The notes under the pieces were generated by a model. The model ran no database searches. It was not told the DNA's origin and saw nothing but the letters and a program-made list of their open reading frames with translations. Positions 2,930-19,827 of a stretch of DNA of 64,000 nucleotides are shown in pieces. Origin of the DNA: Methylovulum sp. (GTDB lineage: Bacteria > Pseudomonadota > Gammaproteobacteria > Methylococcales > Methylomonadaceae); assembly GCA_028712695.1 (NCBI GenBank), contig JAQTQZ010000016.1:8678-72677 (forward strand), given 5' to 3'. A program made the translations under genes and the position numbers. The stretch's first letter is position 1. The number at the start of each line of letters is the position of its first letter.

Positions 2930-3797
2930 CTATATGATAATTTTGCTATTTAATTTTAAATCCAAAAACTGCGGGTAGTCTCTTATATACCCAATTAACT
3001 TGAAGACACCGTGTTGATATTTTAAAAATCATATATAATTCAATCTATTAATAGCATATCGATACGGTATCTTGAAAGGCGATGGGTATATAATCGGCAG
3101 CCTGGTAAAGCTCAGACGCCAAAACCAGACAAATAGCGCCGCTGGAAAAATTATTCAGCTCCCGCCAAATACCCGGCACTATCTGCAAAGCATAATGCGG
3201 CCTGTTTAAGGAAAAGGTCTTTTTTACCGTGCCATCATCCAGCTCAACGTCAAAGCTACTGGCCTGAAAGCCGTTTTCGTCAACGATCACTATGAAATTC
3301 TTAAGGTTGTGGTGCGCCGCAAAAAGCGCACCCTCGCAAATAGGGCCTTCATTGATTTCGCCATCACCCACCAAGGCGTAGGTTTTTTGACCGGTGCCGC
3401 GTAGCTTTGCCTCTATCGCCATGCCGACGTCGACCGAGAAGCCGTGGCCTAATGATCCAGAAGTCACTTCTAAGCCAGAAACACGCGAATCAGACAAGCC
3501 TTTTAAATCGCTGCCATCAGCGAAATAATTCGAGAACGCCTCATTCTTAAGCCAGCCCAATTCACGCAAACACGCGTATTGAGCCATGATGCCATACCCT
3601 TTGCTGAGTACGAAGTAATCACGCTCTGTGGCAAGCGGGTCGTTATAGGGATAGCGTAAATGATTTCGGTATAAAACAGCCAGGAGCTCGATGATTGAGA
3701 ATGCACATCCGATATGGACGGTTGAGCCTGCATAGGCCATATCCAATACCGTTTTACGCAGTGCTTTGGTATTAAATGCGTGAGGATGTGAAGTCAT
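2930..3797 (-). pseudogene. Chimeric pseudogene: transketolase N-terminal subunit fragment fused to the C-terminal half of an FdtA/WxcM-like cupin, interrupted by a MITE
   Basis: Transketolase-N motifs (HIGCAFS, DYFVLSKG, VTSGSLGHG, GDGEINEG) up to ENGFQA, then 57 aa that are 56/57 identical to the cupin at 7183-7611; degenerate residues (SKGYG for SKGHG, ICE for IWE). Confidence 0.85.
2988..3088. mobile_element. 101-bp MITE, IS630/Tc1-like (TA duplication)
   Basis: Bipartite TIRs TACCCA-N6-TT(G/C)AAGA(C/T)ACCGT at both ends; TA at 2986-2987 and 3089-3090; removing it restores the cupin reading frame ...ADYIRDYPQFLDLKLNSKIII*. Confidence 0.75.
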
Positions 3798-3809
3798 AGC
3801 CGACAATTC

Positions 3810-3977
3810 TCAGAAGTTGATACCGAGATAGCTCTCGATTTTACTGGTCGCAAAATCCAACATCTCCTTGGTCAGAGCTGGCTGCACGCCAATCCAGAAG
3901 GTGTTCTTCATCACATTGTCGGTATTGGTCAAATTGCCGCTGATGCAGTAGCTAGCAATCATTTTTATAGTTTCCAT
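3810..3977 (-). pseudogene. Orphan 3' end of rfbH/ddhC (55-codon remnant)
   Basis: Translates [55 protein letters not shown]; 3850-3944 matches 4918-5012 at 90/95 nt. Confidence 0.85.
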
Positions 3978-4062
3978 AATAAATTCGTTTCTTTTGAAAA
4001 ATTAAAGCTCGATAAGCACAAAACTTGGCGAGGCTTATTGGATCGGCGGCTTTCATGTCGTT

Positions 4063-4476
4063 TTAATCTAGCTGATTCACCACTATCTTCGCAAATTCTG
4101 TGAAGTCTGCTAGGTGGTTTTTTACAATGCTGTGAACAATATGCCAGTTGATGGCATCGTAGTTATGCACGGCAATATTGCGAAAGCCAACGGCTTTTTT
4201 CAGGCTAAGCGCCAGCGCTACAGATAATATCCCTGCTTGTGCAAGTCTATCGAACGTTTGGCCCATTGTATCCGGCGGCGGCACGTCCATACCCGAAATC
4301 AGATGTGCACCAATGTCCACACATAACTGCACGGCTCGACTGAGGTTAAGCGAGACTATGTCTTGTAGATCAAAGTCTGTAATTAACGTATCGGCTTCCG
4401 GAGGGCACTTGGTTTCGATGCGTTGTAAACAGCGACGCAGCGCCTCCAGTTTTTGCTCGACTACTTCCCGATCCAC
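4063..4476 (-). CDS. HepT-like HEPN ribonuclease toxin (DUF86)
   Basis: RX4HXY motif (GFRNIAVHNY), QLCVDIG, 137 aa, overlaps upstream nucleotidyltransferase. Confidence 0.85.
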   Translation of the reverse strand: MDREVVEQKLEALRRCLQRIETKCPPEADTLITDFDLQDIVSLNLSRAVQLCVDIGAHLISGMDVPPPDTMGQTFDRLAQAGILSVALALSLKKAVGFRNIAVHNYDAINWHIVHSIVKNHLADFTEFAKIVVNQLD

Positions 4477-4874
4477 GCCGCCCGCCTTTCTGCTAATACC
4501 CGGTTGCGATACGGCATAAAATCGGCCTGTTCAAACAAATGTCGGCTAATCAACTGCCCATACTCACCATCACTCCCCAGCAGGCGACGACCATGCTGCA
4601 CGATTTGGCCCAATAAAGGCTCGGTTGCCACTTTCAAATCTATCAAGTCAACAGGGCGACCGATTTGCTCTGCCAACGCGGCGATGAGGTCCATTTTCTG
4701 ATCCGCTGTCAGCGCCTGTTTGGCGGCTACCGCAATGTCCAAATCACTGTCTGCGCGTTGCCGTCCCGAGGCGACCGAGCCAAACACCAGCGCCAGCACC
4801 AGTTCAGGAAAGCGCGTCAACACTTCCTGCAGTTGCTTGTCGATATCAGGTGCTGTGGTGTTAACAGTGGTCAT
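4461..4874 (-). CDS. MntA-like minimal nucleotidyltransferase antitoxin
   Basis: GSX10DXD motif (FGSVASGRQRADSDLD), VDLIDL; paired with HEPN gene. Confidence 0.85.
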   Translation of the reverse strand: MTTVNTTAPDIDKQLQEVLTRFPELVLALVFGSVASGRQRADSDLDIAVAAKQALTADQKMDLIAALAEQIGRPVDLIDLKVATEPLLGQIVQHGRRLLGSDGEYGQLISRHLFEQADFMPYRNRVLAERRAAWIGK

Positions 4875-4877
4875 GGC

Positions 4878-6641
4878 TTAAACTTTCACGCCCAGATAGC
4901 TTTCGATTTTCTCTACTGCAAAATCCAACATCTCCTTGGTCAGAGCTGGCTGCACACCAATCCAGAAGGTGTTGTTCATCACATTGTCGGTATTGGCCAG
5001 ATCGCCGCTGATACGGAAGTTGGCCCCGATCATGTAAGGCTGGCGCGTAAGGTTACCGGCAAATAGCAGGCGCGATCCGATTTTGTGTTGATCCAGGTAG
5101 GTCAGCAGCTCCAGCCGTGTGACGGGACTGCTTTCTTTCACGGTGATGGGAAAACCAAACCATGAGGGGTCAGAGTGTTCGGTTGCTTCAGGCAGATGCA
5201 AAAAGGCTTCGCAGCTTTTCAGGCGTTCTTTGAGATAGGCAAAATTGTCTTTGCGAGCCTGGATAAACTGTGGTGCCTTGTCTAGTTGCGCCAGTCCACA
5301 GGCGGCCTGCATGTCAGTGATTTTAAGGTTGTAGCCTAGGTGGCTGTAGGTGTATTTATGGTCGTAACCCTTAGGCAAGTTGCCTAATTTAAAGCAAAAG
5401 CGTTTGCCGCAAGTGTTGTCTTTACCTGGCGCGCAGAAGCAATCACGTCCCCAATCGCGGAAGCTTTCGGCAATTGTTTTAAGCTTTTTGCTGTTTGTAA
5501 ATACTGCGCCGCCTTCACCCATGGTGATGTGGTGCGCCGGATAAAAGCTTAGCGTGCCGATGTCACCAAATGTGCCTACCATCTGGCCGCGATAAGTGGT
5601 GCCTAGTGCATCACAGCAGTCTTCCACTAGCCAAAGGTTGTGTTTTTTACACAAAGCCATGACCACGTCGAGGTTAAAGGCGTTACCCAATGAATGCGCC
5701 AGCATGATGGCTTTGGTCTTAGGGCCAATGGCCGCTTCGATTTTGCTGGCATCGATATTGTGCGTTTTAGGATCTACATCCACAAATACGGGCACTGCAC
5801 CAAACTGGAGTATGGGATTGACGGTGGTTGGAAAACCGGCCGCCACACCGATAACTTCATCGCCCGGCTTGATAGCCCGATCGCCCAGTTTAGGAGATGT
5901 CAGGGTGATAAACGCGACGAGGTTGGCTGAAGAGCCGGAGTTGACAGTAATCAGGTGCTTAACGCCGATGAAAGCCGCGAGCTTTTCCTCAAATTTGGCG
6001 TTGAAGCGGCGGCCTGTAGTGAGCCAGCCGTCGAGGGCTACCAACTTTAGGCGGGACAGTCTGAGGTTAAGCCGTTCGTGGTGAGCTTGTCGAACCATGA
6101 ACGGTTTAACCGTCCACCCTTCGACAAGCTCAGGGCGAACGGTTAAGCCTAGCAACTTGTCCCGCCTAAAGTTGGTAGCCCCGTCGAGCGAGGCTTCGAC
6201 CATATTTTTGATCTCTTCGGCACCGATGACCTTGCCTGAAGGTGGAATAACGCTGGTTCCTGGAACAAAAGCAGTGGAATTAAATTTATGTACCGCAAAG
6301 TTCTCCACGTTAAACGCAGTCGCTTTTCGTAAAACTTCATCCAACTTTGTTGTATTGAGGCTGGCAACTTTCCTGCAAATCTTGCTTTGTACGGTAATTA
6401 CCTTATCAACACGAACTACACTTTCCTGTTTTAGCGCTCCTTCTGCCAGATCAACGGCGGTAATTTTGACAGCAGAGGTGTCGTAGATGTAAGAGTCAAC
6501 TTCAGTGGTGATAAAAGCTACGTTTAAGTCATCAAAAATACTACGCTGATTAATCCCGATTACCAAGCCAGGACGAACCTTGCTGCCTGCCCGGTTAGTA
6601 TAAGGAAAATCCAAGAGAACAACATCACCGAGCCTTAACAT
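4878..6641 (-). CDS. rfbH: Fusion protein: N-terminal PemK/MazF-like toxin domain + CDP-4-keto-6-deoxyglucose 3-dehydrase RfbH/DdhC, with a 51-aa MITE-derived in-frame insertion
   Basis: N-term [24 protein letters not shown]...AFITT...RVDKVITV (PemK-like); RfbH motifs [44 protein letters not shown]; ATG at 6641 with GGAGG RBS. Confidence 0.85.
6036..6180. mobile_element. 145-bp MITE with 23-bp perfect TIRs and 8-bp TSD (IS1595-family-like), carrying an internal REP-like inverted repeat
   Basis: TIR GGCTACCAACTTTAGGCGGGACA at 6036-6058 and its reverse complement at 6158-6180; TSD CCGTCGAG at 6028-6035 and 6181-6188; inner IR 6072-6094/6120-6142 (20/23). Confidence 0.92.
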
Positions 6642-6879
6642 CAAATAACTCCTCCCAGTTAACATCATTATCATCTTCGGTATCAAAAAAACTGCTCAGT
6701 CCAATGGCCTGAAATTCCTGTTCAGAATTAGACGCTCCGGCGTGGAATGATTGGGCCACCCCACTCGCCTGATCATCTTTATCCAGGACGATAACAAATA
6801 ACTCAGCTTCACTTACACCTACTAAGGGAGTCAGCAGATGAATATTGCCTTCTTTATAAACCGCCTTTACAGCTTGCAT
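6625..6879 (-). CDS. Putative antitoxin, DUF104/AF2212-like N-terminus
   Basis: [19 protein letters not shown] resembles the AF2212-like fold start; acidic C-terminus; 3' end overlaps the PemK-RfbH start; aggag RBS. Confidence 0.6.
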
Positions 6880-6926
6880 TGTAGGTCTCCTTTGTTCGTT
6901 TGGTAGTCCGCAATTTGTTTCAAGGC

Positions 6927-7182: not shown

Positions 7183-7611
7183 TTATTGACTGGCTTTTAA
7201 AGCCAAGAACTGCCGATAATCCCTTATATAATCAGCCGCTTGATAAAGTTCGGAAGCCAGAACCAGGCAAATTGCGCCGCTGGAAAAATTATTCAGCTCC
7301 CGCCAAATACCGGGGACTATCTGCAAAGCATAATGCGGCCTGTTTAATGAGAAGGTTTTTTTTACCGTGCCATCATCCAGCTGAACGTCAAAACTGCCGC
7401 CAGCGGCAACCAAAAACTGTTGTAAGTCGTAATGGGCATGGCCGCCGCGTGATTCGCCGCCCGGCACATCGTAAAGGTAGTAGATCCTTTTTATGTCAAA
7501 CGGAAAATGCTTTTTTCCTTCGACAAAAGTAATGTTGCCCGATTGGTTATGGACTTTCGGAAGTTCAACGATTGCACAATCAAACACGGTGGTTTTGTTA
7601 TTCGGCTTCAT
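7183..7611 (-). CDS. FdtA/QdtA (WxcM-like) cupin, sugar 3,4-ketoisomerase
   Basis: [48 protein letters not shown]. Confidence 0.85.
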
Positions 7612-16941: not shown

Positions 16942-18156
16942 TTATTGACGTTGTTTGATGGCTGCAATGCGCATTCTCAGGGCGTTTAATTTAATGAAGC
17001 CTTCCGCATCTTTTTGATTGTAAGCGCCGCCATCTTCTTCAAAAGTCGCAATGCTCTCGTCAAACAAGCTGTCGGTTTCAGATGCGCGGCCTACCACGAT
17101 GACGTTGCCTTTGTAGAGTTTTAACCTGACTTTGCCGTTGACAGATACTTGGGAGGCATCAATCATGGTTTGCAACATTTTACGTTCAGGACTCCACCAG
17201 TAACCGTTATAAATTAATGACGCATAACGGGGCATCAGTTCGTCTTTTAAATGTGCCACTTCCCTATCAAGGGTCAGCGATTCAATCGCGCGGTGCGCTT
17301 TTAACATGATGGTGCCCGCTGGTGTTTCATAACAACCGCGTGATTTCATGCCAACATAGCGGTTTTCGACGATGTCCAGACGGCCGATACCGTTTTCACC
17401 GGCAATTTTATTCAGGTTTTCCAAAACTTCTGCTGGAGTATGGGCAACATCATCAATTGCAACAATATCGCCTTGGCGATAGGTCAATTCAATATACGTT
17501 GGCTTATCGGGAGCCATTTCAGGTGAAACTGTCCAGCGCCACATGTCTTCTTCGGGCTCTGCCCAAGGGTCTTCCAATATACGACCCTCATAGGAAATAT
17601 GCAGTAAGTTGGCATCCATCGAATAGGGCGAGGTTTTGCCCTTTTTCATTTCCACAGGAATGCCATGCCGTTCTGCATAGGCCAGCAAGGTCTGCCGGGA
17701 GGTTAAGTCCCATTCCCGCCAAGGTGCAATGATTTGTATATCCGGGCGTAAGGCGTAAGCGCCCAGTTCAAAACGTACTTGATCATTGCCTTTGCCGGTT
17801 GCGCCATGAGAAATGGCTTTTGCGCCTGTTTCATTGGCAATTTCTATCAAGCGTTTAGCGATTAATGGGCGGGCAATGGAAGTTCCCAGCAGGTATTCGC
17901 CTTCATAAATGGTATTGGCGCGGAACATTGGGAACACAAAGTCACGGGCAAATTCTTCGCGCAAATCTTCGATATAAATTTCTTTGATACCCATTGCTTG
18001 CGCTTTGCTGCGTGCCGGCTCAACTTCTTCGCCTTGGCCCAAATCAGCGGTGAATGTGACGACTTCGCATGCGTAAACGTCCTGTAACCATTTGAGAATA
18101 ACGGAGGTGTCCAGACCTCCAGAATAAGCAAGTACAACTTTATTAATATCCGACAT
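16942..18156 (-). CDS. argG: Argininosuccinate synthase
   Basis: [42 protein letters not shown]. Confidence 0.97.
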
Positions 18157-18300
18157 GGCGCTTTAATACCTTGAGTTAAAAAATGATTGGAATTATACCG
18201 GAAAATAAACTTTACAGCAGAAACGTAGCATGCTTGACCGCGAATTTTAAGCACTGGATTTTTCTGACATCATTTTTTAGACGGTGCTGTGTTCATTGGT

Positions 18301-19827
18301 TTACGACCCTTTATTCGCAAACAACGCTTTGAATAGTGTTTGGTTTTTTAGTTGCTGAAAGTCTGCAAAAGCGGCTTCGAAATTGTTACGGACTTCATTT
18401 TTTTTGGTGTCTATAGCTTGTATCACCACACCCATCGCTAAAAAAGTTGTGGCGGGTACGTTATTAGCAAGCATTTCTTCACTAAATAGCTTTAGATGGT
18501 TTTCTTGGATCTGATAATCCTGAAAGTTGCCTAAAATATCTTGTAGTTTTTTTAGATGGTCAATAAGCTGCTTTATTTTGTGCGGCGGGTAAAGGCTTTG
18601 GAAAAACTCCATTAAATAGCGCAATTTTTTACACGTTTTCCTTAATTCGTGCAAAGCCTCGGCTTCTGATAATTGGCTGACTGCATTGCCTTCTTGTAAT
18701 ACGCGGTTATAAATTTTCCAGATCCGCTTGTCGGCGAGTTGCTTAATGGTCAGTCGCGCGTTAGCTTCGGCAGGGAATTTTGGTGCATGCGCTTTAAGAT
18801 AGTGTTCCCATTCCGATAAGGTTGATAAGTATTTGGCGGAACGCAGTTTTTTTGCCAACTCTTGCTGGGTTTTGCGTTGTTTGTTAAGCAGAAAGTTATG
18901 CAGTGGGTTTAAGTCTTCACGAAGTGGGGGGGGGAGGCTTGCCTTATAATCGTCAAAATGTAACAGATAGACATCCAAGTCACGGGTGGGCGTGGTGATT
19001 TGGCCAAGCCAAGAAAAAAATTCCGCGTAATAGGCGGAGGTCTCCTCAGGCAATATGCCTTTTAGTTGGCTAAGTCCTGATCGCGTCCGGCGCACAGCAA
19101 CCCTGAAATCATGTAAAAACTCACTGTCGGTGTCGGCAATAGTGCCCTGTTCATTGTCTTTAATGACTTTTAACAGATAGCTATAGATGTATTTGCTGGC
19201 AATGTCGGCACGCAGGTCAGGCGCCAGATTGATGGCTAGTTTCGATGAATAGTCTTTAGGTTTTCGGTGTTGCTGTTTTAAAGCGGCAAGCAAAATGGGT
19301 TTATTGATAGGTGATAAGGCCAATTTATCGGTAAGTAAGGTGATAATGTGCTCTGCGACTGTGTCGTAGCCTTTTATTTGTTGTAATAAAACCCGGTTGT
19401 TGAAAAGATCATAATCCTCAATAAATAAGCGTAGCACCGTTTTCTCATCTTTATTGATAATATTGACTTGATAGTGCCCATAATTCAAGGTGCAAACGCC
19501 GAGTAATGCGCGCATTTCAAGAATGGGCGTCAGAATGTCACGTAATTCTCCAGGATCGAACTGTCGGGCGAATGCTGGGGTTTGTTTTAGCTTCCTATTT
19601 ATAATGGTGGCGTTGGTTTCAAGGTTTCTAAGCGATAAGGATGAGTCGTTTTTTGAATGGTTAAACTCACAAATAATGCCTTTTGAGTATAACCGCCAGT
19701 CAAAACTATCATAATAAGTCTTTAGCGAAGGCTCATGGGAAACCAGTTGTACATCAATGAGATGACTGAGTTGGGTAATAAATTTTTCAGTTGTTAAGGT
19801 AACTGGGAACTCAAATTGTAGAGACAT
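18301..19827 (-). CDS. CHAD domain protein (polyphosphate-binding) with CYTH-like N-terminus
   Basis: LHDFRVAVRRTRS, RDLDV, LHELRKTCKKLRY, LQDILG motifs. Confidence 0.85.
   Translation of the reverse strand: MSLQFEFPVTLTTEKFITQLSHLIDVQLVSHEPSLKTYYDSFDWRLYSKGIICEFNHSKNDSSLSLRNLETNATIINRKLKQTPAFARQFDPGELRDILTPILEMRALLGVCTLNYGHYQVNIINKDEKTVLRLFIEDYDLFNNRVLLQQIKGYDTVAEHIITLLTDKLALSPINKPILLAALKQQHRKPKDYSSKLAINLAPDLRADIASKYIYSYLLKVIKDNEQGTIADTDSEFLHDFRVAVRRTRSGLSQLKGILPEETSAYYAEFFSWLGQITTPTRDLDVYLLHFDDYKASLPPPLREDLNPLHNFLLNKQRKTQQELAKKLRSAKYLSTLSEWEHYLKAHAPKFPAEANARLTIKQLADKRIWKIYNRVLQEGNAVSQLSEAEALHELRKTCKKLRYLMEFFQSLYPPHKIKQLIDHLKKLQDILGNFQDYQIQENHLKLFSEEMLANNVPATTFLAMGVVIQAIDTKKNEVRNNFEAAFADFQQLKNQTLFKALFANKGS

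Follow-up and report, generated by a model that had tools for sequence, protein, structure and literature searches.

Our data indicate that the rfbH gene in the draft genome of a methane-oxidising Methylovulum sp. (Methylomonadaceae; GCA_028712695.1) is interrupted, in frame, by a 145-bp miniature inverted-repeat transposable element (MITE). The gene lies in a 64,000-nucleotide stretch of contig JAQTQZ010000016.1, referred to here as the window. We consider it roughly 75% probable that the element is a MITE of an insertion sequence (IS) family encoding a DUF6399 protein, that it contains a nested hairpin repeat, and that it entered rfbH in an open frame by chance and is now an immobile orphan within a stranded operon fragment, with no effect on O-antigen and no function as an O-antigen switch.

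According to this reading, the MITE would be a non-autonomous miniature derivative of a DUF6399-encoding IS, presumably moved by a cut-and-paste DDE transposase, and its shell would hold an independent 87-bp inverted hairpin pair at its centre. One copy would have transposed into rfbH at CCGTCGAG, in a 3.7-kb internal piece of a CDP-sugar operon that appears stranded between fdtA 3' segments. The rfbH open reading frame (ORF) stays open because the 145-bp element and its 8-bp target duplication total 153 nt and because the orientation and phase of the insertion fall in the one frame of the element that lacks stops. With neither a DUF6399 gene nor a second copy in the genome, the element is by now an orphan that cannot move; this copy may have been mobilised in trans in an ancestor or may have arrived with the surrounding DNA fragment.

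Structure of the element and its insertion site

We found that the element occupies positions 6036 to 6180 of the window and is bounded by 23-nt terminal inverted repeats (TIRs) that are complementary at 23 of 23 positions, while 100 shuffles gave no chance match. The TIR motif has no further occurrence in the window. An 8-bp direct repeat, the target site duplication (TSD), abuts both ends of the element, and together they add 51 codons with zero stops to rfbH, that is, 48 residues plus a duplicated LDG. The features of the element are as follows.

6028 to 6035, unstranded: left copy of the TSD, CCGTCGAG (direct-repeat search; single target copy in relatives)
6036 to 6058, plus strand: left TIR, GGCTACCAACTTTAGGCGGGACA (inverted-repeat search; 21 of 23 positions match the TIR of the autonomous IS L130, described below)
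6064 to 6150, unstranded: nested 87-bp double-hairpin cargo with ends AGGTTAAGCC... and ...GGTTAAGCCT (stand-alone copies elsewhere, plasmids included)
6072 to 6104, unstranded: hairpin unit 1, stem CCGTTCGTGG/CCATGAACGG, loop TGAGCTTGTCGAA
6110 to 6142, unstranded: hairpin unit 2 in inverted orientation, stem CCGTCCACCC/GGGCGAACGG, loop TTCGACAAGCTCA
6158 to 6180, minus strand: right TIR, exact complement of the left TIR
6181 to 6188, unstranded: right copy of the TSD (direct-repeat search)
Predicted empty-site junction in rfbH: ...GCCAGCCGTCGAG|CGAGGCTTC...

In DNA alignments, homology to three related operons breaks off at 6181 and picks up again at 6035, the two subject segments sharing 8 bp; these relatives thus have an unoccupied site with a single copy of the target. 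Furthermore, the insert columns are empty in all of the 120 best RfbH homologues. The original prediction of an in-frame 145-bp element with an 8-bp TSD, perfect 23-bp TIRs and 51 added amino acids was thus borne out throughout, by repeat search, by ORF reading and by the empty site in three relatives. These features also bear on whether a repeat was misjoined into rfbH during assembly. The genome is a draft, which leaves room for such an artefact; however, the TSD is an exact duplication of host codons, homology is uninterrupted on both sides, and the element is single-copy, so the assembly holds nothing else to misjoin. We give an assembly artefact almost no credence.

The element has strong folding potential. 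As RNA, the insert forms a single duplex of approximately 70 bp (-107.5 kcal/mol, z = -13), and as single-stranded DNA the element is a near-perfect 145-bp palindrome (-62 kcal/mol). A search against Rfam returned nothing near a gathering score, the top match, AaHKsRNA41, scoring 24.5 bits where the threshold is 97.

The MITE family and its parent insertion sequence

When the TIR and the interior were searched separately across the genome's own assembly (3.79 Mb, 110 contigs, 48% GC), the TIR was found at this element only, while the interior hairpin had approximately six partial copies elsewhere. In a set of 60 related genomes, full-length 145-bp copies that are 79-94% identical recur within the genus and the family. 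TIR pattern matches numbered 243 (G030), 143, 65 (G004), 36 and 10 in five relatives, compared with 0-1 for the reversed control. A scan at one genome per species gave at least 120 loci, and from all loci we extracted 93 non-redundant TIR pairs of at most 420 bp each. These elements range from 65 to 402 bp in length; their flanking duplication is perfect (8/8) in 43 and 7/8 in 6. An 8-bp TSD is thus the signature of the MITE family, and its shell holds variable cargo or none, as in 71-bp TIR-TIR elements. Overall, the 145-bp element is a true MITE: it is small, has TIRs and a TSD of fixed length, is multi-copy in relatives and has an autonomous partner with the same ends. It codes for nothing itself, five of its six frames being closed.

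Two observations bear on age. Perfectly complementary TIRs occur in just 1 of 100 other copies, with a mode of 2-4 mismatches, and a copy on a metagenome contig is 96.6% identical and lies between genes at an unrelated site, flanked by a TSD of its own, AAAAATCG. That the insertion is recent, as first proposed from its perfect TIRs, is a reasonable reading of these data.

With respect to target choice, the target sites of 47 perfect TSDs are 65% A+T, T-rich at positions 4-7 and favour G at position 1; the rfbH target CCGTCGAG, at 25% A+T, is atypical for the family. At one locus (L023 4475-5777; G034:C33, about 17474-18775), seven 145-bp MITEs lie head to tail, each followed by the same 48-bp spacer, with a period of 193 bp. 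This array is a tandem amplification of the MITE and its flank rather than a set of separate insertions. Literature searches on the encoded peptides and on MITEs in methanotrophs found nothing relevant.

The interior of the element consists of two inverted 33-nt hairpins (6072-6104 and 6110-6142) with a common 13-nt loop, TGAGCTTGTCGAA. Each half has a 10-bp stem around this conserved loop, and the stem tops covary (TGG/CCA, CCC/GGG, TGC/GCA, TCC/GGA). The original prediction had proposed a widespread palindrome packaged in transposon ends, and both parts of this proposal gained support. The 87-bp cargo (element positions 29-116) occurs alone, in many copies at 90-96% identity, in four relatives (G017, G015, G007, G021) that have few or no full-length matches, one of which (G021) lacks any TIR. 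Stand-alone copies begin AGG(N)TTAA... and end ...TTAA(N)CCT with no obvious duplication. The central 72 nt are found at 80-85% identity on approximately 20 Moraxella osloensis plasmids and on Sphingobium and Comamonas plasmids, where no feature is annotated. The interior is thus an independent repeat that extends to plasmids of other proteobacterial classes, at least three classes in all. Since its core motif is missing from the autonomous elements described below, the cargo is not derived from them. Leucothrix MITEs carry the same cargo core within different stems.

The cargo shares with REP/REPIN sequences, whose associated RAYT (Y1 HUH) gene is flanked by the repeats, an inverted doublet of short hairpins that is dispersed across distant taxa, stands alone without an obvious TSD and is nested in other mobile elements. 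In contrast to REP/REPIN, the conserved part of the cargo is the loop while the stem tops covary, and in Leucothrix the core sits in different stems altogether. Elhai and colleagues reportedly described, in 2008, small dispersed repeats nested in cyanobacterial MITEs.

We found full-length ISs with the same 23-nt ends, 1.71-1.79 kb long, with 8-bp TSDs and one protein of 541-543 amino acids. The family end pattern is GGCTACCNACTTAAGNNGGGACA, from which the window TIR deviates at 1 position; it differs from the L130 TIR at 2 of 23. L130, in an alphaproteobacterial metagenome-assembled genome (MAG), is 1788 bp long with perfect TIRs, the TSD CTTTTGAC and a 543-aa ORF whose stop lies inside the right TIR. 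L116, in a Campylobacterota MAG, has a 543-aa ORF between TIRs 1751 bp apart. Three identical 1710-bp ISs (L171, L172 and L173; ENA ERZ21829540) lie at three loci with the TSDs CTCCCTTT, CGTACATG and CAAACTCC, which shows directly that the autonomous element has transposed recently. Together with L170, these are the autonomous partners that bear the MITE ends, and an 8-bp TSD is common to four of the autonomous copies and to the window MITE. In Accumulibacter and Methylococcales MAGs, fragments of the DUF6399 protein abut the TIR at contig ends.

The IS protein combines an N-terminal helix-turn-helix (HTH) with a C-terminal DUF6399 domain (PF19936, 4.6e-59) and matches no NCBIfam transposase model. 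Its homologues number at least 1,329; they go by 'hypothetical' or 'DUF6399', with a single instance of 'transposase family protein'. The majority lie on 1.7-2.2-kb contigs, as expected of insertion sequences that break assemblies. Residues D145 (DET), D200 and E458 (SSAVEGRNG) are invariant across 46 aligned members. An AlphaFold model (AF2; predicted local distance difference test, pLDDT, 81.7) contains a beta-beta-beta-alpha-beta core and an all-helical insertion of approximately 200 residues, with E458 on a long helix. A Foldseek search against the PDB ranked Hermes (hAT) first (E 2.6e-3, probability 0.98, with a weak template-modelling score, TM, of 0.24-0.26), with retroviral integrase cores next. 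When the DUF6399 alignment was run as a profile against PDB sequences, only coiled-coil and winged-HTH noise came back, and a literature search for DUF6399/PF19936 found no relevant mention. ISDol1/ISNCY was considered as a candidate place for the family within ISfinder. The motif around E458, S-x-x-x-E-G-x-N, may resemble that of ISL3. From the structure of the elements, the DUF6399 protein is presumably a transposase; the invariant residues and the predicted fold support a DDE enzyme, though short of proof. As in hAT elements such as Hermes, the TSD is 8 bp, and the predicted RNase H-like DDE core would have a large all-alpha insertion before the catalytic E. In contrast to hAT, there is no sequence-level similarity to any solved transposase and the match to Hermes has the low TM just given, and the DUF6399 protein lacks a BED finger, its N-terminus being a winged HTH. 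Within the genome's own assembly, tblastn with seven family members found no DUF6399 homologue below E = 0.1.

These ends also decide against an IS1595 origin, to which the element had at first been assigned. An 8-bp TSD together with ends that start in GG would fit IS1595, and IS1595 transposases are present in some relatives; IS1595 elements likewise have a single DDE-type transposase gene and a size of the order of 1-2 kb. An 8-bp TSD is common to several families (IS6, IS66, ISL3, hAT) and is therefore not diagnostic of IS1595. The family's transposase domain PF12762 is absent from the studied genome (G000), from G030 (243 TIRs) and G004 (65 TIRs), both among the genomes richest in the MITE, and from G005 and G024, and neither PF12760 nor PF12762 is found in the elements described here. 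Twelve IS1595 loci in relatives have no TIR within 5 mismatches save one 5-mismatch match. Moreover, IS1595 copies in relatives have different ends (CCTGATTAGC..., of the type CCTGATT...), three intact Methylotuvimicrobium buryatense copies end in CCTGATTAGCAAGATGCTTCAGCT, and it is DUF6399 genes, not IS1595 genes, that the TIR bounds. By transposase distribution, ends and the DUF6399 partner, IS1595 parentage is refuted as far as the present data go, and we regard it as very improbable.

Another candidate was also set aside. A 971-bp TIR pair in M. buryatense 5G (L021 2001-2971) was a candidate autonomous element of IS1 size; it encodes no transposase and contains only nested debris. This shell copy has the TSD AAGGAGCG, and the end of an IS1595 element (CCTGATTAGCAAG...) lies in its debris alongside other palindromes. 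The centre of the MITE shell acts as a landing pad at this locus.

The interrupted gene and its stranded operon

The host gene and its surroundings comprise the following features.

4878 to 6686, minus strand: interrupted host gene, a PemK-like domain (aa 20-121) fused to an RfbH E1 dehydrase (DegT, aa 212-594), 602 aa with the 51-aa insert (ORF, Pfam)
6006 to 6011, minus strand: extra Arg codon, CGC CGC (unique among 121 sequences; 17 bp from the insertion)
3262 to 6925, minus strand: DNA homology to the ddhA-ddhB-antitoxin-PemK::RfbH-MNT-HepT-tktN-tktC operon, internal fragment only (alignment to three operons)
3087 to 3257, unstranded: 171-nt direct repeat, 3' part of fdtA, 90% identical to 7225 to 7395
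7225 to 7395, unstranded: second copy of the 171-nt repeat, within the intact FdtA-like gene 7183 to 7611

In Pfam terms the second domain of the fusion is DegT/DnrJ/EryC1. It aligns over its full length and at high identity with the Yersinia pseudotuberculosis E1 dehydrase (3BCX/3BB8, E 6e-189), and this alignment breaks exactly after ...VEASLDG and resumes at LDGWLTTG. The closest three homologues are 87-90% identical outside the insert. Five residues from the insert, a duplicated CGC changes the invariant TTG-RFN to TTGRRFN, a change seen in 1 of 121 sequences. Apart from these two lesions, there are no private substitutions at columns that are invariant in the 120 RfbH homologues, and both the catalytic His and the cysteines of the Fe-S cluster are preserved. 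Since no such substitution has accumulated, rearrangement and insertion are both young. The genome's own assembly contains no second rfbH. An AlphaFold model of RfbH with the insert had a mean pLDDT of 36.6 (shallow, 83%-identical alignment) and was not used. As side observations, slippage, a footprint and compensation are candidate origins of the duplicated CGC, and the PemK-like::RfbH fusion is a conserved architecture, exactly 535 aa in 19 of the 120 best homologues and 522-540 aa in approximately 32.

In the three closest relatives the operon reads ddhA - ddhB - 84-aa antitoxin-like gene - PemK::RfbH (535 aa) - MNT - HepT - tktN - tktC, followed in some by an epimerase. In the window, homology to this operon is limited to 3.7 kb, from 6925 (the last approximately 45 nt of ddhB) to 3262 (around codon 196 of tktN), and tktN is truncated, stopping at aa 196. 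By tblastn, the assembly holds no ddhA or ddhB orthologue (best matches at most 39% identical and partial), no tktC orthologue (best approximately 33%) and no match to the epimerase. RfbH is consequently without a supply of CDP-4-keto-6-deoxyglucose in this assembly. The arrangement looks like a foreign operon piece captured by recombination within an fdtA-type O-antigen cluster, and on its gene content the interrupted gene appears to belong to a non-functional operon remnant. Regarding the neighbourhood itself, the 171-nt repeats enclose a 4.1-kb block that holds the operon fragment, and ORF 3048-3806 is a chimera of transketolase_N (aa 1 to approximately 181) and an FdtA tail. The same gene order is kept by three Methylococcales-type contigs (operon loci L165, L166, L168 and L169), where the 84-aa gene overlaps the fusion upstream and MNT-HepT lies directly downstream.

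We asked whether the insertion could switch the O-antigen, as had been proposed. In that account the 51-aa segment is a tolerated loop in an active RfbH, and precise excision between the 8-bp repeats turns the O-antigen on and off or modulates it. The frame is open, the rest of the enzyme is fully conserved, and the same peptide is accommodated by nine other proteins, at least at the level of annotated ORFs. The near-perfect palindrome flanked by 8-bp direct repeats is also a good substrate for slippage deletion. Palindromes flanked by direct repeats are known to favour such deletion in the precise excision of Tn5 and Tn10. However, there is no pathway for RfbH to serve, with ddhA, ddhB, tktC and epimerase orthologues absent, tktN truncated and the gene in a stranded fragment. 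The insert divides the invariant ...SLDG|WLTTG... region, and the extra Arg is a second unique lesion only 5 residues off. The approximately 70-bp mRNA duplex is a likely RNase III target and barrier to translation; by analogy with Correia elements and RNase III, it would be expected to destabilise or block the rfbH message. A query of the 26-nt left flank plus TSD, which would catch filled and empty alleles alike, had 0 matches in metagenome contigs, and no empty-site allele with these flanks was found there. Furthermore, the genome has a single copy of the element and no transposase for it, the outcome that the original prediction had itself named as counting against its proposal. Precise excision by slippage between the 8-bp repeats is mechanistically possible, yet it would restore an enzyme without a pathway. 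We judge the switch improbable, and the insertion is most likely without effect on O-antigen.

Selection could also have kept the frame open for a reason unrelated to sugars. In the other five combinations of frame and orientation, the ORF would terminate within the element, which would free a PemK-like domain of approximately 160-190 aa or uncouple translation of MNT-HepT, such that only a read-through insertion would survive. Consistent with this idea, the fusion forms a conserved architecture with the 84-aa antitoxin-like gene upstream and MNT-HepT downstream, and the toxin-antitoxin-type parts are the best conserved in the fragment (MNT 94%, HepT 89%). However, toxicity of the PemK-like domain, alone or fused, is without support, and a 1-in-6 chance requires no selection. 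We regard such selection as unlikely, though less so than the switch.

In-frame residence and relation to known elements

Rickettsia palindromic elements (RPEs) are palindromic repeats able to sit in frame and add peptide to proteins, and the original prediction had likened the rfbH insertion to them. We found that one of six frames of this copy is stop-free, and because only this frame lacks a stop, a random insertion stays open approximately 1 time in 6. Element lengths modulo 3 show no bias (30/33/30, n = 93). The proposed count of in-frame intragenic copies gave 0 genuine cases among the 93 other copies; two spanning open frames were both spurious, one compositional and one a 5' leader read into the downstream gene. 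Across 5.8 billion protein clusters, the insert peptide occurs in the same frame in 9 proteins of 331-1053 aa. Three of these are internal insertions of cargo or shell, in BREX PglX (a Methylovulum MAG), a type I HsdM and a FecR; of the other six, one lies in the signal peptide of an outer-membrane protein, one in an IS1595 transposase, and four are N- or C-terminal read-ins. In-frame residence thus occurs, but rarely, and there is no RPE-like habit. For RPEs such residence is the habit, while the element described here also differs from them in having TIRs, a TSD and a transposase partner. The preserved rfbH frame is most simply read as a 1-in-6 accident rather than a selected property. Separately, we note that the VRPELVEG... 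peptide is in frame in PglX (P0249), HsdM (P0247), a FecR linker (P0244) and the outer-membrane protein signal peptide (P0241), and that the 87-bp cargo by itself corresponds to 29 codons.

Several points weigh against the reading of a chance insertion into a dead fragment. The 1-in-6 accident is plausible and unproven, and nine other public proteins hold the same peptide in frame. RfbH is pristine apart from the insert and the extra Arg, with no visible decay, so it may have retained its function. The assembly is a draft of 110 contigs, and ddhA and ddhB could lie in a gap, though completeness is given as 99.98%. Finally, the transposase activity of the DUF6399 protein is deduced from element structure, and the structural match to Hermes is weak.

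The element otherwise resembles known bacterial MITEs, such as Correia/NEMIS of Neisseria, RUP of Streptococcus and Nezha of cyanobacteria. Like them, it is short, gene-less, bounded by TIRs and flanked by a TSD of fixed length; it is multi-copy in related genomes, forms hairpins and would be moved in trans by a full-length IS whose ends match its own. It differs from them in that the partner IS encodes a DUF6399 protein, which neither Pfam nor NCBIfam calls a transposase. Moreover, its 23-nt ends are nearly invariant across very distant phyla, and its cargo is exchangeable between TIR pairs 65-402 bp apart.

On balance, we lean toward a broader proposal. DUF6399 proteins may be the DDE transposases of a 1.7-1.8-kb IS family that searchable papers, Pfam and NCBIfam do not recognise, with 8-bp TSDs, a hAT-like all-helical insertion and near-invariant 23-nt ends across Proteobacteria, Cyanobacteria, Desulfobacterota, Chloroflexota, Campylobacterota and Bacteroidia. 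The MITEs of this family would carry a second, independently spreading hairpin repeat, whose single open frame would let it persist inside proteins (RfbH here; PglX, HsdM and FecR elsewhere).

As far as this locus is concerned, the result mainly serves as a correction: a MITE lying in frame in a conserved enzyme resembles a designed switch, while its context shows a stranded fragment and an orphan element. Beyond the locus, the MITE ends mark 'DUF6399' proteins as probable transposases of a widespread, uncatalogued IS family, which is of value for annotation. Many homologues of this IS protein lie on IS-sized contigs that break assemblies, and methanotroph genomes are littered with the MITE family. 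The cargo hairpin, a repeat present across taxa, produces spurious ORF extensions (VRPELVEG / VRQAHHER) in public proteins. Recognising the IS family and its cargo would improve gene calling, as well as the interpretation of assemblies in Methylococcales, cable bacteria and cyanobacteria.

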